IMG/VR virus record: IMGVR_UViG_2548876952_000004
Span: 1 to 4,908 of that record
DNA length: 4,908 nucleotides
Direction: 5' to 3' (one strand)
Origin: a virus
Lineage: Duplodnaviria > Heunggongvirae > Uroviricota > Caudoviricetes
Shown piece after piece: positions 1 to 4,908 of this stretch. The translations under genes were made by a program, and so were the position numbers. Under the pieces are notes generated by a model that was not told the DNA's origin, searched no databases, and saw only the letters and a list, made by a program, of their open reading frames with translations. Positions within the stretch are counted from its first letter, which is position 1, and the number at the start of each line of letters is the position of its first letter.

Positions 1-338
1 CCGTTTTCGTCGGTGGTGCCGATGATATTGGAAACGGTCTGCGCGAGTTTCGTTTCTTCGTCGTCGCCGGTGCCGTCTTCCACGCGCACGACAACGGTGA
101 CCGGTTTTGACTGGTCGGCGATAGCCTGCAACGATGCCGCCAGCGTGCCTTTTTTACCGGCCTTTGCAATCGCGCTCTGCACATTGGTAATCAGCACCGG
201 TTTATTGAGGGGAAAGGTTTCCGCATCCGCATCGCTGGCCGTGCAGACCATGCCGACAATGGCAGTGGATACGGTGGAAATGACACGGGTGCCGTCGTTA
301 ATCTCCAGCACCTGCACGCCGTGATGATAGTCACTCAT
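1..338 (-). CDS. FI: Tail sheath protein FI, N-terminal ~112 codons; the gene continues past the window start
   Basis: Minus-strand ATG at 338..336, which I translated by hand as [95 protein letters not shown]..., with no stop before position 1. It matches my recollection of the P2 FI (contractile tail sheath) N-terminus. A GGAG Shine-Dalgarno lies about 8 nt upstream (minus-strand ccacGGAGttaaacggATG). The plus-strand ORF 13..324 in the track is the antisense frame of this gene. Confidence 0.85.
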
Positions 339-435
339 CCGTTTAACTCCGTGGTTAATGGGTGAGTGGTATTTTCTGTTGTGCAGAGCATGAGACGCTA
401 TTTGACCTGGCTGGTCAGTGGATGAAACAACAGAT

Positions 436-458
436 AAAGAAAAGGCGGACAATCCGCC
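436..458 (-). terminator. Possible intrinsic terminator: GC hairpin followed by a T-tract, as read on the minus strand
   Basis: Minus-strand sequence GGCGG-ATTGT-CCGCC (plus 444..458; 5-bp all-GC stem, 5-nt loop) is followed directly by TTTTCTTTAT (plus 443..434). The stem is short and the hairpin lies ~210 bp downstream of the accessory ORF stop, so the assignment is tentative. Confidence 0.3.
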
Positions 459-462
459 CGCC

Positions 463-480
463 TGTCATGATTTGTACACA
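463..480 (-). promoter_or_regulatory. Perfect TGT-N12-ACA dyad; candidate binding site for an Ogr/Delta-type late activator (possible FI late promoter element)
   Basis: Plus 463..480 reads TGT-catgatttgtac-ACA. P2/186 late promoters are known to carry a TGT-N12-ACA dyad centred near -55. The site is ~130 bp upstream of the FI start codon in the correct orientation, but I could not find a convincing -10 element at the expected spacing. Confidence 0.25.
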
Positions 481-525
481 CTCATTTTCCGACTGACAAT
501 TTACATAACCCAAAAGTTATCAAAT

Positions 526-568
526 CTGACAGTCTGCTTTGAGCAAGAAGCGGACATTTGCCTGTCAG
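526..568. repeat. Inverted repeat CTGACAG ... CTGTCAG (7-bp arms, 29-bp spacer)
   Basis: Plus 526..532 ctgacag and plus 562..568 ctgtcag are exact reverse complements. The region sits between the accessory ORF stop and the FI upstream region. Confidence 0.4.
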
Positions 569-668
569 GGTATATGCCGCTCTGCGGTTATTATCCAGAA
601 TCAATAATTCATCTGAGTTGGATTACATATAAAACATAGTTACCCCATGAATAACCATGAGCAGATCA

Positions 669-1262
669 TCAATTATGTAAATCTTTTGTTTCAGGTTTTT
701 TTGGGTGTTGTGACAACAAATGGCTATAGCGTTTAAGCAAAATATTAGAAAGATTAAACTCATTCATGAAGTGTTCTTCTAATAAGTAACCATCAATATC
801 AACTTTAATATCATTACTACTTTTCATCTTCTGTAACGTAGATTTTACACACTCCAGCAGGATGCTTTGCTCATGGTAATAGTCCATAAGAAGAGTAACA
901 TCCTCTTTATCAAGTTTACTTAATTCACTGAAGTAGGCTTTAAAAACTTTATCAGTCTGGTTTAATGCAATCTGTAAGCGAGGCCCTCCTAATGATTTGA
1001 CATTAATGGCAAAAGGCTCGCCAACAAAATGCTCCGAATTTTCGTCAAAGCCAATATTTCTCGTTTTATCAAGAAAAGTGAGAGCGCGATGGTTATTAGC
1101 GATTTCATATGCAAACATTGTTCTGATACTGTCTCTCTCAGCCTCCATGCTTATATCATCACGATGATTCGTATAAAATATATTTCCAATAAAGAGAACC
1201 ATAGCAAGAATCACTGAACTTGCCTCCCAATTAATATTTTTTAATCGTCGCTTAGTAAACAT
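669..1262 (-). CDS. Hypothetical protein, 197 aa, N-terminal membrane anchor; accessory (moron) gene at the G/FI hotspot; function unknown, candidate phage-defence or superinfection-exclusion protein
   Basis: Complete ORF from ATG at 1262..1260 to TGA at 671..669, with an AAGGTG Shine-Dalgarno 6 nt upstream of the ATG. The N-terminus is MFTKRRLKNINWE followed by the hydrophobic stretch ASSVILAMVLFIGNIFYT (aa ~14-31, encoded ~1170..1223), which fits a single-pass N-in membrane anchor with a ~165-aa C-terminal domain. The gene and its flanks are visibly AT-rich compared with the tail genes. I see no Walker A, HxH or other catalytic motif and do not recognise the protein. Confidence 0.6.
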   Translation of the reverse strand: MFTKRRLKNINWEASSVILAMVLFIGNIFYTNHRDDISMEAERDSIRTMFAYEIANNHRALTFLDKTRNIGFDENSEHFVGEPFAINVKSLGGPRLQIALNQTDKVFKAYFSELSKLDKEDVTLLMDYYHEQSILLECVKSTLQKMKSSNDIKVDIDGYLLEEHFMNEFNLSNILLKRYSHLLSQHPKKPETKDLHN

Positions 1263-1408
1263 ACCGCACCTTAATTATCAAAAATATTCCTTCAGTGTTA
1301 TCTGGTTAGCCTAAACCAAGTCATTAAAGTCCGCAGGATATCATATACATAAAATGTATTGATTAGAATTTGCACTAATAAAATAATGCTTTACTAAAAT
1401 CTACTCCA

Positions 1409-1448
1409 GACACAGAGCGGCCTGTCAGATTAGGCTTTACTCTGTGCC
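1409..1448 (-). other. Imperfect nested hairpin downstream of G (possible terminator or RNA structure separating the tail operon from the accessory gene)
   Basis: Plus 1411..1417 cacagag pairs with plus 1440..1446 ctctgtg; an inner pair gcct (1420..1423) / aggc (1432..1435) is also present. On the minus strand it is followed by tctggagtagattttag, which has only a weak T-run. Low confidence. Confidence 0.2.
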
Positions 1449-1483
1449 ATAGATATGTAAGCTCACACCAGAGCTCATACAAC

Positions 1484-2011
1484 TTATTGCGGCATTTCCG
1501 GCCATTCAGGATTTGCAGGATCCACACGACTGACCAGAACGCTGTAACGCTCCCATGCATCCAGTCGGCTACGCTCCTCATCTGTTGCCATATTCAGCCT
1601 GACAGCGCGCTCCAGCGGCACAATCACGGATTCGGCTTCGGAAAGCAAAGTTGCCTTTTGTGATTCTGCCAGTTGCTGCTGTTCGTCTGCCGTATAAATC
1701 CGCTTAATCACGGCACCATCCTTAAACATCCATTTACCTGAGTCATCAGCACGTCGGTTGGCGGTAATATCAGGAACCTCGACAACGCTAAAACCTTCAG
1801 GGTTAAGCGTTGAAGCATCTCTGGTGATGCCGACAATTATATTATTCTCGTCGTAAACAATCTTTATCGTGTCTGCCTGAAAATTACTTACTTCCTCATA
1901 CCAGTTTTTTCCCTCTTCGGACCATAACCAGATAACATCAAAATTTTTTGTCAGTTGATATTGGGCAACAGTTTTTGGATTACCCGCAGTAATATTTTTT
2001 AAATGCTGCAT
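1484..2011 (-). CDS. G: Tail fibre assembly (chaperone) protein G
   Basis: 175-aa [33 protein letters not shown]...[11 protein letters not shown], which matches my recollection of P2 gpG and the Tfa tail-fibre-assembly family. Its start ATG (2011..2009) lies 3 nt after the H stop (2017..2015), with an AGGTG Shine-Dalgarno inside the H 3' end; this tight spacing is typical of an operon. Confidence 0.9.
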
Positions 2012-2014
2012 AAA

Positions 2015-4045
2015 TTACACCTGTGCGACGTTATACCATGTGCCATTGATGTATTTTTGTATTGGTCTGAATACTGCGGGGTCATCACCATCGACTTCAC
2101 CGACAATACCAAGCCCGGTAATTACGTGCCCTGCTTTCTCATACATCACCCCTTTCTGCATGGTCTGGACAACTCGAGTCCCAAGCCGGATATCGCGTAC
2201 ATAACGGGAATCAAAATTACTATAGTTAGATGGTGATACCTGCCCGTTAACAGCAAAAGTGATGCTGTTATCTGTATTTCTCTGACTGTAAAAATGCCAG
2301 CCTGCATCATCACCTAATTCAGCCACCACCGGACGACTTGAGTTTCCCCACAAATTGAATGCGGCTTCCTTCGTGGATGTATTACTGCTGCTGACCGTGA
2401 TTTTTTTCCCGCTACCGGCACGTACTTTGGTACTTGAGACAATATCACCAGTAACACTCAGGCCATGCCCCATTGATACAGCACCCGTGGCATCATTTAT
2501 AATCAGTGGTCTTAAATTATTATAAGTACCTAATCTGTCACCTGATTTAGTCAACATAAAATAAGTGCTGCTGCCATCATTCCTGATAAAGAATCCATAA
2601 TTGCCATAAGCAATGCGCAGACCATTAGCACTGAGTGATGTAATCTCACCTCTTGAACGGAGACCATAAGCGGAGCTGAGTGATAATTCTTCCTGAGCAT
2701 CAGTATTACCAGTCGCCCAGCGAACTACCCCGCCCTGTACTGTTTCATGCCAGATAGTGTCTCCTTCTCCACCACGAAACTTTCTGAGATATTTTTTGCC
2801 GCCTCTGGTGCCTGAACATAAGGCCGTAGACATATAGGCATTCTGGCTTCCGCCATCCTGATTAATCGTTCCGGTCATTGAGTCGCCCTGACGATTCCAG
2901 TCACGACGCCAGCCGGGGGAGTAGCCGTCCCCATGATTAATGTAAGTGAATTGCGCGCTGGTTGTACCGCCACCACTTGATGTTGTCGGCGTGGTCACTC
3001 GGATAGTGATTGCAGATTTAGTTCCCATGACCTCGACGACACAACCAGCCAGGTGGATATCACCACATCCGGTATCCGTAATGATTTTGTTATTTGCATA
3101 TGACCAGGAGCCTTTGCACATCCAGTACGGATGATTAAATGCACCACGGGAATCCAGCCATTCAATAAACTGAGCGGTTGTCCAGTTTCCGGCTTCAGTG
3201 CTCAAAGCGCCGCTATAAGCACGACAGGCACCGATATTTTTCGTGAAGGTATCCTTTCCCGGAATATCCGCACCGTTCTGATCTTTCTGAAGACGTTTTT
3301 CAGCATTGTCATAGGCAGACTTCACTGCTTTTGGCGTTGCCGCGAGGTTTTCAGAATCACTGTTGGTGGCGCTACTGAGCTGGACAAGACCTTTTCGCGC
3401 TGTGGTGGCGTCCTGTGCGGTATATTTCCCGTTAGCCAGGTCATATGCGGCCTTAACCGCTTTCGGCGTTGCAGCCAGTGTTTCAGACGTACTGTTGGTC
3501 GCACTGCTTAACTGAGTAAAACCTTTTGCGGTCAGCGAGGCGTCAGGGTGACGTCGTGACTGTTCGTGCTCTGCAATTTTGTCATCAACGTAATCCTGCG
3601 TCGCCATCACCGTTGTGGTGTCAATGGTCAGCTCCACTGAGGCCACACTGCTGACGATGATGACCATGCGACAGGTCTGCGAACGTCCTGAGCCTTCGGC
3701 AAGGGCTGGCTTATAGCTTTCGGCCATGTTCGCCACGGCAATTAACGTTCCCGCATCATCGTACAGGCCAAGCTCACGCATCCAGAAACCGCCCACCTCC
3801 GGCGGAATAACCAGCTCTGCGATAATATAATTACTGTTTCGTTTGTCCTGGCTGATTTTGTTCAGCGCATGTCGCCAGACTTCATGGATAAGCCCGGTCT
3901 GTCCGGCATCCGGGACAGGCAATTTACCACCGCCATCCCCGACGGCCATCGTGGTAATGTTGACCTTCCGCCCTCCCGGTGCGGTTGCCGCTGCCAGCTT
4001 TGCTGCACCGGCAGTGGTGATAACGGTTTTGAATTTTGTGCTCAT
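2015..4045 (-). CDS. H: Tail fibre protein H
   Basis: 676-aa ORF. The N-terminus MSTKFKTVITTAGAAKLAAATAPGGRKVNITTMAVGDGGGKLPVPDAGQTGLIHEVWRHALNKISQDKRNSNYIIAELVIPPEVGGFWMRELGLYDDAGTLIAVANMAESYKPALAEGSGR... and the C-terminus ...NFDSRYVRDIRLGTRVVQTMQKGVMYEKAGHVITGLGIVGEVDGDDPAVFRPIQKYINGTWYNVAQV both match my recollection of P2 gpH. It contains two copies of a ~32-aa tail-fibre repeat. Length and operon position (I-H-G) agree with P2. Confidence 0.93.
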   Translation of the reverse strand: MSTKFKTVITTAGAAKLAAATAPGGRKVNITTMAVGDGGGKLPVPDAGQTGLIHEVWRHALNKISQDKRNSNYIIAELVIPPEVGGFWMRELGLYDDAGTLIAVANMAESYKPALAEGSGRSQTCRMVIIVSSVASVELTIDTTTVMATQDYVDDKIAEHEQSRRHPDASLTAKGFTQLSSATNSTSETLAATPKAVKAAYDLANGKYTAQDATTARKGLVQLSSATNSDSENLAATPKAVKSAYDNAEKRLQKDQNGADIPGKDTFTKNIGACRAYSGALSTEAGNWTTAQFIEWLDSRGAFNHPYWMCKGSWSYANNKIITDTGCGDIHLAGCVVEVMGTKSAITIRVTTPTTSSGGGTTSAQFTYINHGDGYSPGWRRDWNRQGDSMTGTINQDGGSQNAYMSTALCSGTRGGKKYLRKFRGGEGDTIWHETVQGGVVRWATGNTDAQEELSLSSAYGLRSRGEITSLSANGLRIAYGNYGFFIRNDGSSTYFMLTKSGDRLGTYNNLRPLIINDATGAVSMGHGLSVTGDIVSSTKVRAGSGKKITVSSSNTSTKEAAFNLWGNSSRPVVAELGDDAGWHFYSQRNTDNSITFAVNGQVSPSNYSNFDSRYVRDIRLGTRVVQTMQKGVMYEKAGHVITGLGIVGEVDGDDPAVFRPIQKYINGTWYNVAQV
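3299..3526 (-). repeat. Tandem direct repeat inside H (two copies, period 132 bp / 44 aa) encoding the tail-fibre repeat motif
   Basis: H residues ~174-205 KGFTQLSSATNSTSETLAATPKAVKAAYDLAN and ~218-249 KGLVQLSSATNSDSENLAATPKAVKSAYDNAE. At DNA level, compare plus 3351..3400 cagaatcactgttggtggcgctactgagctggacaagaccttttcgcgc with plus 3483..3530 tcagacgtactgttggtcgcactgcttaactgagtaaaaccttttgcg. Confidence 0.7.
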
Positions 4046-4055
4046 TATTCCTCAC

Positions 4056-4586
4056 TTATCCGGGGTAAACCGTAATTACATCGCCGTCGTAAGCCACACC
4101 ACCGGCGAACAGGTAGCCGGGAATGTCGCGGGAAATGTTCAGGCCAATAAGGTGACGGCTTGCAGGTTTGGCATCAGCAATCAGCCGTTCCATTTCCTGA
4201 TACATTGCCTCTGTGATACCGCTTTCCAGTACACCGATATCAAGCCGGAAGGTGCCGGGCGGGTCACTGGTTTCCCACCACTCCGTCACGTTGATGAGAT
4301 AGCCCAGCGGCTCCACCACACGCCGGATTGCACCTATAGTGCCTTTATGACAGTGGATGAAATAGGCATCGCGGATAACGGCGCGTTTGGTCGCTTCCGG
4401 CCACTTTTCATCCCATCTGTCGACCGAAAACGCCCACGCCAGCCACGGCAGCAGATTTGCCGGGCAGGTGTCCGGGTTCCACAGCTCACGAATACTGACC
4501 GGTGTTTTTTCAATTTCCGCACAGGCTTTTGCGGCGGCGACCTCAAGCGGTGATGAGCCGGTCGGCAGCAGTCGCGAATCACTCAT
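4056..4586 (-). CDS. I: Baseplate assembly protein I
   Basis: 176-aa ORF MSDSRLLPTGSSPLEVAAAKACAEIEKTPVSIRELWNPDTCPANLLPWLAWAFSVDRWDEKWPEATKRAV..., matching my recollection of P2 gpI in sequence and length. It lies between J and H as in P2, and its start overlaps the J stop by 8 nt. Confidence 0.9.
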   Translation of the reverse strand: MSDSRLLPTGSSPLEVAAAKACAEIEKTPVSIRELWNPDTCPANLLPWLAWAFSVDRWDEKWPEATKRAVIRDAYFIHCHKGTIGAIRRVVEPLGYLINVTEWWETSDPPGTFRLDIGVLESGITEAMYQEMERLIADAKPASRHLIGLNISRDIPGYLFAGGVAYDGDVITVYPG

Positions 4587-4908
4587 CCGAGCCTCCGGTC
4601 ACGACGCGGTATTCGGTACAGAAAGACGCCTGCGTACTGTTGAGCACGATGTCGGCCAGTGGTGCGGCCAGCTCGACACGCTGCACGCCTTCCACATGCA
4701 AAGCGGCATAAATGGCAGACAGACGGATGTCGCGCCCCAGCCGGTGCTGTGCCGTGATGTACGCTTCCAGTTTTTTCACGGCGGCAGCGCGTATGGGTTC
4801 GCTTTCGGGACCAGGGTAAAGGTAAAGCGTGGCGTTTATCTGGTATTCAACGATGGCGGCAGACTGCACGGTCACGCGGTCGGCCACCGGCCTGACGTCC
4901 TCGCCATT
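4579..4908 (-). CDS. J: Baseplate assembly protein J, C-terminal ~109 codons; the gene begins beyond the window end
   Basis: The minus-strand frame is open from the window edge (hand translation ...NGEDVRPVADRVTVQSAAIVEYQINATLYLYPGPESEPIRAAAVKKLEAYITAQHRLGRDIRLSAIYAALHVEGVQRVELAAPLADIVLNSTQASFCTEYRVVTGGSDE) to the stop at 4581..4579. The M at 4887 in the ORF track is an in-frame GTG, not the true start. The position immediately upstream of I fits P2 gene order V-W-J-I-H-G. Confidence 0.8.
   Translation of the reverse strand, partial: NGEDVRPVADRVTVQSAAIVEYQINATLYLYPGPESEPIRAAAVKKLEAYITAQHRLGRDIRLSAIYAALHVEGVQRVELAAPLADIVLNSTQASFCTEYRVVTGGSDE

Follow-up and report, generated by a model that had tools for sequence, protein, structure and literature searches.

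In P2-like phages, the junction between the tail fibre assembly gene G and the tail sheath gene FI is a documented cargo and defence hotspot (Vassallo 2022, PMC9519451; NAR 2026, PMC13586616; iLund4u preprint). Also designated P2 hotspot #2, it has been found to hold three PD systems and fun (Vassallo 2022, PMC9519451), while P2 hotspots also bear cargo unrelated to defence, for example partition systems and cytolethal distending toxin (Rousset et al., 2022). In the P2 reference, the junction is occupied by fun(Z), a gene of 528 codons which lies on the opposite strand (L003 676-2262). Besides the systems housed in such hotspots, several inner-membrane superinfection-exclusion (Sie) proteins have been described, including P22 SieA, HK97 gp15, T4 Imm and lactococcal Sie2009 (PMC10461980), and SieA is regarded as an orphan, host-restricted membrane Sie protein with a narrow phage target range (PMC10461980). 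We analyzed here a stretch of 4,908 nucleotides from a virus of the Caudoviricetes (the window; positions 1 to 4,908 of IMG/VR virus record IMGVR_UViG_2548876952_000004), in which the G/FI junction is occupied by a 197-codon gene predicted to encode a membrane-anchored protein.

This gene is genuine and under purifying selection, and it is an autonomous single-gene cargo, or 'moron', moving between mobile elements of Enterobacterales. Its product is tentatively proposed to be a superinfection-exclusion protein which would act alone in the cell envelope, in the inner membrane or the periplasm, a function that we regard as possible rather than probable. The G/FI junction is recognized as a reservoir of anti-phage genes, but annotation is lacking for most of what it carries. 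The hotspot was already known and the protein family, phrog_3829, had been catalogued without function, and an unannotated gene at this place is expected rather than surprising. What is new is the prevalence of the gene, the confident fold of its product, an unusually conserved transmembrane (TM) helix, and a spread over P2-like phages, P4-like satellites, a lambdoid prophage, islands and a plasmid.

Occurrence, selection and genomic contexts of the gene

With 100% identity, the window matches a portion of a P2-like prophage that E. coli RM14723 carries in its chromosome (NZ_CP027103.1), adjoining fieF, and all the genes of the window are borne by the minus strand. The gene, its segment and its two flanks were delineated as follows:

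555..1410, minus strand: AT-rich cargo segment; by blastn against the P2 reference, homology stops at 554 (FI side) and resumes at 1411 (G side)
669..1262, minus strand: 197-codon cargo gene with an ATG start, 100% identical to the RefSeq CDS WP_032301962.1 of RM14723; phrog_3829
1272..1267, minus strand: Shine-Dalgarno sequence AAGGTG, 4 nt before the ATG of the 197-codon gene, read from the sequence
1484..2011, minus strand: tail fibre assembly gene G, upstream flank (PF02413 Caudo_TAP, 1e-34; phrog_136, 2e-79; RefSeq annotation)
338..3, minus strand: first 112 codons of the tail sheath gene FI, which forms the downstream flank and is interrupted by the end of the window (Gp18_domIII_N, 1.1e-14; RefSeq 'phage tail sheath protein')

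The cargo has a size of ~856 bp, in place of the ~2.09 kb fun(Z) segment of P2. Its open reading frame (ORF), whose translation begins MFTKRRLKNINWEASS, has a G+C content of 33.8%, close to that of the whole cargo segment (33.9%) and well below that of the left core (1..554, 52.2%) and of the right core (1411..4908, 51.1%). A first-pass annotation, made from the letters of the window, had described an AT-rich 197-codon gene between G and FI, and this description is borne out (34% GC vs 51-52% in the flanks, with P2 genes on either side). It gave no strand, which is minus, and was otherwise correct in what it observed of the sequence. Its statement that the G/FI junction of P2 holds Z/fun is confirmed in the P2 reference, and its view of this site as a hotspot where anti-phage genes are swapped in agrees with the published surveys (PMC9519451, PMC13586616, iLund4u preprint). 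Horizontal acquisition, which it had likewise proposed, is supported by the compositional break, by the cargo bounds at about 555 and 1410 with respect to P2, and by homologues in unrelated mobile elements.

Among 5426 complete E. coli genomes, the ORF was matched at >=95% identity in 203, always on the chromosome, which corresponds to a frequency of ~3.7%. The whole G-ORF-FI arrangement is present, full-length, in 201 of the 5426. A P2-type FI was found at 1921 places in 1669 genomes and the ORF at 209 places, so that ~11% of E. coli P2-type prophages, about one in nine, have this cargo and ~89% are without it. Because fun(Z) was found in only 13 of the 5426 genomes by the same measure, the textbook occupant of the hotspot turns out to be a rare variant. 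The 197-codon gene is ~15x commoner and is the commonest single occupant of the Z/fun hotspot among those measured. Similarly, 13 phage records, which represent 8 distinct isolated P2-like phages including AC1 and SIDE7, carry the gene at 94-97% protein identity. The gene is dispensable for P2, being absent from P2 itself and from ~89% of FI-bearing prophages, and a junction without cargo exists.

Pairwise dN/dS values (Nei-Gojobori) are 0.23-0.26 when the window is compared with its closest homologues in E. coli. Between genera, where synonymous sites are saturated and the proteins are still 58-72% identical, they are 0.08-0.16. Intactness in related prophages, on which the first-pass annotation had made its interpretation depend, is thus observed: the ORF is intact, under purifying selection and full-length in 201 genomes. 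The opposite view, in which the ORF would have no function and be either what is left of a decaying gene or a product of chance in AT-rich DNA, could appeal to the degraded state of the host prophage (frameshifts in gene V and in an AAA ATPase gene, an IS481-family insertion) and to the existence of truncated copies, such as 99-aa forms present on ~40 contigs. It is effectively refuted by the selection, AlphaFold and census results: purifying selection is strong across genera, the arrangement is full-length in 201 genomes, the gene is present in viable isolated phages, the AlphaFold model is confident, and the architecture is kept down to 18-30% identity.

In the deposited annotations of AC1 (L002 4049-4594) and SIDE7 (L014 1549-2094), the gene starts at an internal GTG, which gives a protein of 181 aa, and such 181-aa calls form a cluster of 149 members in the protein collection. 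ATG is preferred as the true start because the GTG start removes the basic N-tail and cuts the TM helix, and because the N-terminal INWEASS motif is invariant.

The protein matches phrog_3829 ('unknown function') over its full length (E 7.1e-134, residues 1-197 of the 197-position profile), as do 24 of 24 diverse members; no other PHROG family gave consistent matches. In Pfam, nothing was found above threshold for the protein or for the 24 members scanned singly; NCBIfam gave no match for the protein, and no PDB sequence fell below E 0.29 with the protein or the family profile. Sub-threshold singletons (NCH2, E 0.031; holin families) were judged to be due to chance or driven by the TM segment. 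An exhaustive HMMER search of 1.84 billion representatives returned 30 relatives in all, many of them fragments and none with an informative extra domain, and the named sources are all Enterobacterales (Escherichia, Salmonella, Pantoea, Kosakonia, Pluralibacter, Enterobacter, Dickeya and Serratia). Many copies are named 'lysogenic conversion protein' by NCBI, a name which is not traceable to any experiment and which we suspect was carried over from the fun(Z) position. In the literature searched, there is no mention of WP_032301962 or phrog_3829, and the DefensePredictor supplements contain neither the accession nor the product name 'lysogenic conversion'. The protein had been called unrecognised by the first-pass annotation; this stands as regards Pfam, NCBIfam, PADLOC and the PDB, and is to be amended by its full-length membership of phrog_3829 and by its NCBI name.

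It has also been considered whether the protein is a structural or morphogenetic component of P2. This was rejected on the basis of its absence from P2 and from most FI-bearing prophages, of the existence of the empty junction, and of the lack of any structural or morphogenetic family match (PHROGs and Pfam; the protein and the 24 members), the kind of match that the first-pass annotation had named as contrary to its interpretation. Likewise, a link to a particular tail fibre type (a self-receptor mask) was rejected, as the gene occurs with tail fibre genes H of ~676-681 and of 919 codons, as well as in fibreless elements.

Outside E. coli, none of the homologues in the loci examined belongs to a P2-like phage. 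In Kosakonia and in Pantoea ananatis, the gene is found directly past the alpha primase at the end of P4-like satellites (L011 7001-7591; L012 5402-6001), with 64% protein identity to the P2-borne copy. The primase-to-att site of P4-like satellites is a minor defence hotspot (PMC13586616). A 2026 survey, using a criterion of >85% identity, concludes that there is no exchange of defence genes between P2 and P4; the phrog_3829 family is common to both kinds of element at a deeper level. In Salmonella, a lambdoid prophage carries the gene at its end, and a type II methyltransferase and restriction endonuclease pair is located directly downstream of it; in Dickeya, it is located beside SIR2-HerA, an IS110 element and ArdC; and in Serratia, it is 4.7 kb from a DRT2 reverse transcriptase, these three defence systems being PADLOC-confirmed. 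Two Pantoea islands carry the gene near AlpA in one case and near Antirestriction and RadC genes in the other, and in Enterobacter it is borne by an IncFII plasmid, adjoining IS91 and a PIN toxin module. Because the neighbours differ in all eight kinds of context examined, the gene appears as a stand-alone one-gene module without obligatory partner. In addition, its placement by defence genes or in defence hotspots is recurrent (P2 hotspot #2, P4 primase-att, type II restriction-modification, SIR2-HerA and DRT2).

This distribution also bears on a lysogenic conversion unrelated to phages, for instance immunity to colicins, tailocins or type VI secretion system effectors, modulation of an envelope machine, or stress tolerance. 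As a plasmid, satellites and islands carry the gene as well as phages, its benefit need not concern phages, and a function of this kind would also fit a predicted envelope protein, the non-defence cargo of P2 hotspots, the NCBI label of untraced origin, and the lysogens of AC1 and SIDE7, in which no phage phenotype is attributable to the gene (see below). We nevertheless consider it unlikely. The protein has no similarity to immunity, virulence or envelope families (Pfam, NCBIfam, PDB), both the Z/fun and the P4 primase-att sites are enriched for defence, and the neighbours are repeatedly defence genes and not toxins: the Rhs toxin of a Pantoea island is >4 kb from the gene and has its own SUKH immunity genes.

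Predicted architecture and candidate function

The protein possesses a single hydrophobic segment, which spans residues 13-31 (mean Kyte-Doolittle 1.56 over 19 aa); the next best stretch scores 0.41, and no second segment is thus predicted. The N-tail which precedes it contains 4 K/R and 0 acidic residues.

1170..1229, minus strand: TM helix, codons 12-31 (WEASSVILAMVLFIGNIFYT), from hydropathy, flanking charges and the AlphaFold helix

A single TM segment was found in 23 of the 24 diverse family members, the exception (P0063) appearing N-terminally truncated. The N-tails of these 23 proteins bear 1-8 K/R (>=2 in 21 of the 23) and <=2 acidic residues, and the 20 residues past the helix are approximately neutral. 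On account of the charges of the N-tail and the positive-inside rule, an N-in/C-out orientation is favoured, with the bulk of the protein predicted to be periplasmic. AlphaFold, run with a 24-sequence alignment, produced a model with a pLDDT of 83.4 and a pTM of 0.72 (five models, all 80-83). In this model, helix 12-66 spans the membrane and runs unbroken into the soluble part, where a loop (67-91) and helices 92-100, 105-116, 119-148 and 151-178 complete a compact bundle. The modeled protein is thus most likely a bitopic inner-membrane protein with a cytoplasmic N-tail and a periplasmic helical bundle of ~150 residues. The first-pass annotation had predicted a basic N-terminus, one TM helix and a C-terminal domain without known motif, and the hydropathy profile (13-31) and the model both agree with it. 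In three distant branches (18-30% identical; Salmonella, Dickeya and metagenomes), a C-terminal C-x4-C pair is conserved (e.g., CEYPGC, CEYPGCF). This pair, carried by proteins P0058, P0064, P0068 and P0082-P0087 and absent from the E. coli type, may form a periplasmic disulfide loop, which would be compatible with an oxidising compartment.

The best-conserved segment of the protein is the TM helix itself, with a column entropy of 0.48 bits vs 0.66-1.44 elsewhere in the close family, and of 1.52 vs 1.96-2.31 elsewhere in the wide family. It carries a small-xxx-small pair (S16xxxA20) and N27. Small and polar residues are known to drive the self-association of TM helices, through GxxxG-like and Asn-mediated packing. 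As a passive anchor would be expected to drift, this conservation suggests a specific intramembrane contact, either of the helix with itself or with another membrane protein. Family-wide, the conserved residues are S16, R47, A51, E53, I54, N57, L117 and Y129, among which no catalytic pattern was recognised.

On this basis, a mechanism can be proposed for superinfection exclusion, in which the activity itself is inferred, as are the topology, the target and the expression of the gene in lysogens. The basic N-tail would be located in the cytoplasm, and the conserved TM helix would continue into the periplasmic bundle. The TM helix, together with the membrane-proximal conserved face (R47, E53 and N57), would bind a membrane component of the host or of the incoming phage. 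The genomes of a narrow set of competing phages would thereby be kept out, and the cell would not be killed. Exclusion is favoured because 1) the predicted topology places the bulk of the protein outside the cytoplasm, which argues for entry exclusion over an abortive infection sensed in the cytoplasm; 2) the gene works alone, and its large domain could meet the injection apparatus and could not sense replication; 3) the membrane helix looks like an interface, and the family is orphan and host-restricted like known Sie proteins; and 4) the gene is repeatedly placed in defence hotspots and islands, an argument of guilt by association. In its broadest form, the proposal is that phrog_3829 represents a new family of single-gene, envelope-acting immunity proteins whose TM helix docks onto an inner-membrane component and blocks genome entry, a family common to P2-like phages, P4-like satellites, lambdoid prophages and plasmids at 60-70% identity and the commonest Z/fun occupant measured; taken as a whole, it must be viewed as rather doubtful. 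Concerning the interpretation given by the first-pass annotation, the hotspot position, the horizontal cargo and the architecture are retained, and the anti-phage role is a candidate one, suggested by association.

The conserved helix would also suit an abortive-infection effector. Such a protein would be inactive in the inner membrane until a phage cue made it oligomerise via its TM helix (S16xxxA20, N27) and depolarise or permeabilise the membrane, the cell dying before phage release. The TM helix is indeed the most conserved segment and bears polar and small residues typical of TM self-association, single-TM proteins are common effectors in defence systems (Rousset et al., 2022), and the hotspot and island associations are the same as for exclusion. 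Yet membrane effectors are normally paired with a sensor or a signal-generating partner, and no partner gene is conserved in any context; the only sizeable domain is predicted outside the cytoplasm, where it would be unable to sense replication; and one moderately hydrophobic TM helix is a weak basis for a pore. The similarity to ClyA and NheA is no better than that to designed four-helix bundles. Abortive infection is thus improbable in our view.

Several observations weigh against superinfection exclusion. When PADLOC-DB v2 was searched with the protein, no family was matched at E up to 10 (PD-T4, PD-T7 and PD-lambda systems and PDC candidates included), and scanning the 24 members gave only four unrelated singleton matches, with best E of 0.004-0.013. 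The fold is a generic helical bundle that brings no functional lead, and Foldseek matches are equally generic, the top ones being de novo designs with TM-scores <0.5 and E-values >=8e-3. The topology was deduced from the positive-inside rule as sole criterion, for a segment of moderate hydrophobicity (1.56 on the Kyte-Doolittle scale). The gene is not among the systems recovered in the T4/lambda-vir/T7 selection of Vassallo (PMC9519451), and the PADLOC models of those systems do not match it. Rousset et al. (2022) challenged E. coli C lysogens of four new P2-like phages with a panel of eight phages (lambda, T4, P1, 186cIts, CLB_P2, LF82_P8, AL505_P2 and T7; T5-, T1- and HK97-like phages were not included). 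At least AC1 and SIDE7 among the four carry an intact copy of the gene, 94-97% identical (97% for AC1). Protection was reported only for the AC1 lysogen, against lambda and LF82_P8, and the cloned TIR system of its other hotspot reproduced this protection (Rousset et al., 2022). These lysogen data are mild and indirect evidence against a broad phenotype, and they apply equally to an abortive-infection effector.

Expression signals point in the same direction. In a consensus scan, no convincing sigma-70 promoter was found, and the sole consensus match on the right strand (1301..1274) was rejected, as transcription would start inside the Shine-Dalgarno sequence. The late-promoter dyad TGT-N12-ACA has no more matches than expected by chance. 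The same scan revealed no terminator-like site from the stop of G (1484) to the start of the ORF (1262), an interval in which a stable stem-loop does lie. As the gene is not set apart from the late V-W-J-I-H-G operon by a canonical terminator, its expression may be mainly late lytic rather than in the lysogen. The hairpins concerned are:

1405..1451, minus strand: G-side hotspot arm, a stable stem-loop CACAGAG...CTCTGTG containing AATCTGACAG (RNA fold), kept across five cargo types
659..635, minus strand: terminator-like hairpin and T-run, 10 nt past the ORF stop (consensus scan), common to a Pantoea island
463..443, minus strand: core G+C-rich terminator hairpin (GGCGGGCGGATTGTCCGCC-TTTT), outside the cargo and just upstream of the FI late promoter region (pF)

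The G-side stem-loop is not a canonical terminator since it has no proper U-tract. The fold of the 659..635 hairpin is weak and not better than that of shuffled sequences. The 463..443 hairpin is conserved in P2 and in an 'empty' G/FI junction, the FI-proximal core being common to P2.

These signals lead to a further possibility, namely that the gene is a late lytic accessory expressed by read-through from the V-W-J-I-H-G operon, with a role in late exclusion, in protecting progeny from adsorbing to debris, or in lysis tuning. The gene is oriented like the late tail genes, the scan detected two terminator-like sites past the ORF (659..635 and 463..443) and none at 1484-1262, and the annotated terminator of the P2 V operon is inside P2-specific cargo and not in the shared core; moreover, a type II topology with a helical periplasmic domain resembles i-spanins in outline. 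This role is very unlikely, given that the family also occurs in P4-like satellites, an IncFII plasmid and non-phage islands, all without a late tail operon, and that ~89% of P2-type prophages lack the gene. A stable stem-loop stands between G and the ORF, the protein has no homology to P22 Rz (hhalign probability 0.3%), and the prophage already has LysB/LysC spanins, with no o-spanin partner accompanying the gene. What probability remains beyond superinfection exclusion and the rival functions weighed here falls to something else.

Cargo joints, hotspot frame and neighbouring genes

The remaining features of the window are the second arm of the hotspot and the other tail genes:

518..552, minus strand: FI-side hotspot arm, CTCAAAGCAGACTGTCAGATTTGATA, which holds an inverted copy of AATCTGACAG and is kept across cargo types
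2015..4045, minus strand: tail fibre gene H
4056..4586, minus strand: gene I (Tail_P2_I, 6e-56)
in the window, minus strand: gene J, end only

In a comparison of the window with loci L003 and L016-L019, the variable DNA is bracketed by both arms in all five cargo types examined. On the G side, the sequence of the arm reads CACAGAG-TAAAGCCTAATCTGACAGTCC-GCTCTGTG, and on the FI side, the sequence conserved across cargo types is CTCGCTCAAAGCAGACTGTCAGATTTGATAGC. Together, the arms hold an inverted repeat of 10-12 nt, AATCTGACAG(TC) / (GA)CTGTCAGATT, which corresponds to repeat I2 (523-541 vs 1413-1431). The 'empty' junction of E. coli EC581 (129 bp from the G stop to the FI start) has neither arm, and the core terminator hairpin follows directly. 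Recombination during cargo swapping may be anchored at the arms; alternatively, they may represent the two ends of an ancestral insertion. The Pantoea island locus L005 shares window positions 526..1284, with only 22 nt in common upstream of the start.

In this cargo type only, a 9-nt direct repeat (CTGACAGGC) is present at both cargo joints (560-568 / 1420-1428), accompanied by the inverted pair GCCGCTCTG / CAGAGCGGC (576-584 / 1413-1421). These joint repeats may be the scar of the event by which the cargo was acquired, or may be due to chance.

In some phage records (L001 4788-4904; L015 2288-2404), an ORF of 38 codons is annotated on the strand opposite to the FI promoter region (FIG00643520). 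The corresponding ORF of the window (362-496, plus strand), which overlaps the pF region as well as the core terminator, is probably no gene. A match to Rfam STnc630 in the same stretch of the core upstream of FI (24 bits vs a gathering score of 55) was sub-threshold and was dismissed.

The tail fibre gene H is a mosaic, in which an N-terminal P2 collar is combined with two fibre repeats and with a trimerisation domain like that of T4 gp34 (PF21446, 1.5e-25). Its length is 676 codons here as judged from the ORF (RefSeq annotates a later start), 681 in AC1, and 919 in P24E6b, SIDE7 and PhiR44_1. The RM14723 prophage (NZ_CP027103.1 196060-236653) is decaying, its baseplate gene V being frameshifted, with the cargo ORF itself intact. 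Its other hotspot, A/Q (tin-old), contains an AAA family ATPase gene with a frameshift, as well as an inserted IS481-family transposase.

Comparison with known systems

If the proposed function is true, a common and very compact gene of 594 bp would join the determinants of the range of phages able to infect E. coli, which is relevant to phage therapy and to the prediction of susceptibility from genomes. It would also provide a tractable exclusion protein whose specificity may lie in its TM helix. If the gene has no anti-phage effect, it would be a warning that the occupants of hotspots should not all be taken for defence genes.

Among the systems of the same hotspot, P2 Fun(Z) shares with this protein the G/FI slot and its conserved arms, and both genes are AT-rich, non-essential and horizontally acquired cargo. 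Fun(Z) differs by its size (528 aa), its opposite strand and its RefSeq name, 'P-loop ATPase, Sll1717 family'; its characteristic phenotypes are a block to phage T5 and sensitivity to FUdR. No homology between them was detected by hhalign (probability 0.15%, E 0.4), and tblastn of the ORF against the P2 reference genome gave no match. Similarly, the PD-T4, PD-T7 and PD-lambda systems have the same hotspot and native context, and no PADLOC model consistently matches the protein or the 24 members.

With regard to fold, four-helix bundles such as the periplasmic sensor domains of chemoreceptors, OspC/Vsp, ClyA and designed proteins offer a general likeness, from which the present protein departs by having no second TM helix, signalling module or sequence similarity. 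The i-spanins (lambda and P22 Rz, P2 LysB) are alike in their N-terminal TM anchor, predicted N-in/C-out orientation and all-helical extracytoplasmic part. In contrast to these, the protein is a compact bundle and not an extended coiled coil, and its gene lies outside the lysis cassette with no adjacent o-spanin or lipoprotein partner. Its identity as an i-spanin was therefore rejected, based on the compact bundle, on the hhalign result with P22 Rz, and on the prophage having its own LysB/LysC elsewhere.

The inner-membrane Sie proteins are related to it neither by hhalign (0.5% to P22 SieA and 0.8% to SieB) nor through PHROGs, as no Sie-annotated family was matched. SieA has three predicted TM segments, instead of one and a large soluble helical bundle here. 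These proteins resemble it in being small, prophage-borne, encoded by single genes and partnerless, and in belonging to fast-diverging, host-restricted orphan families. They reside in the inner membrane, as is predicted for the present protein, and exclude a narrow group of phages, as it may do.

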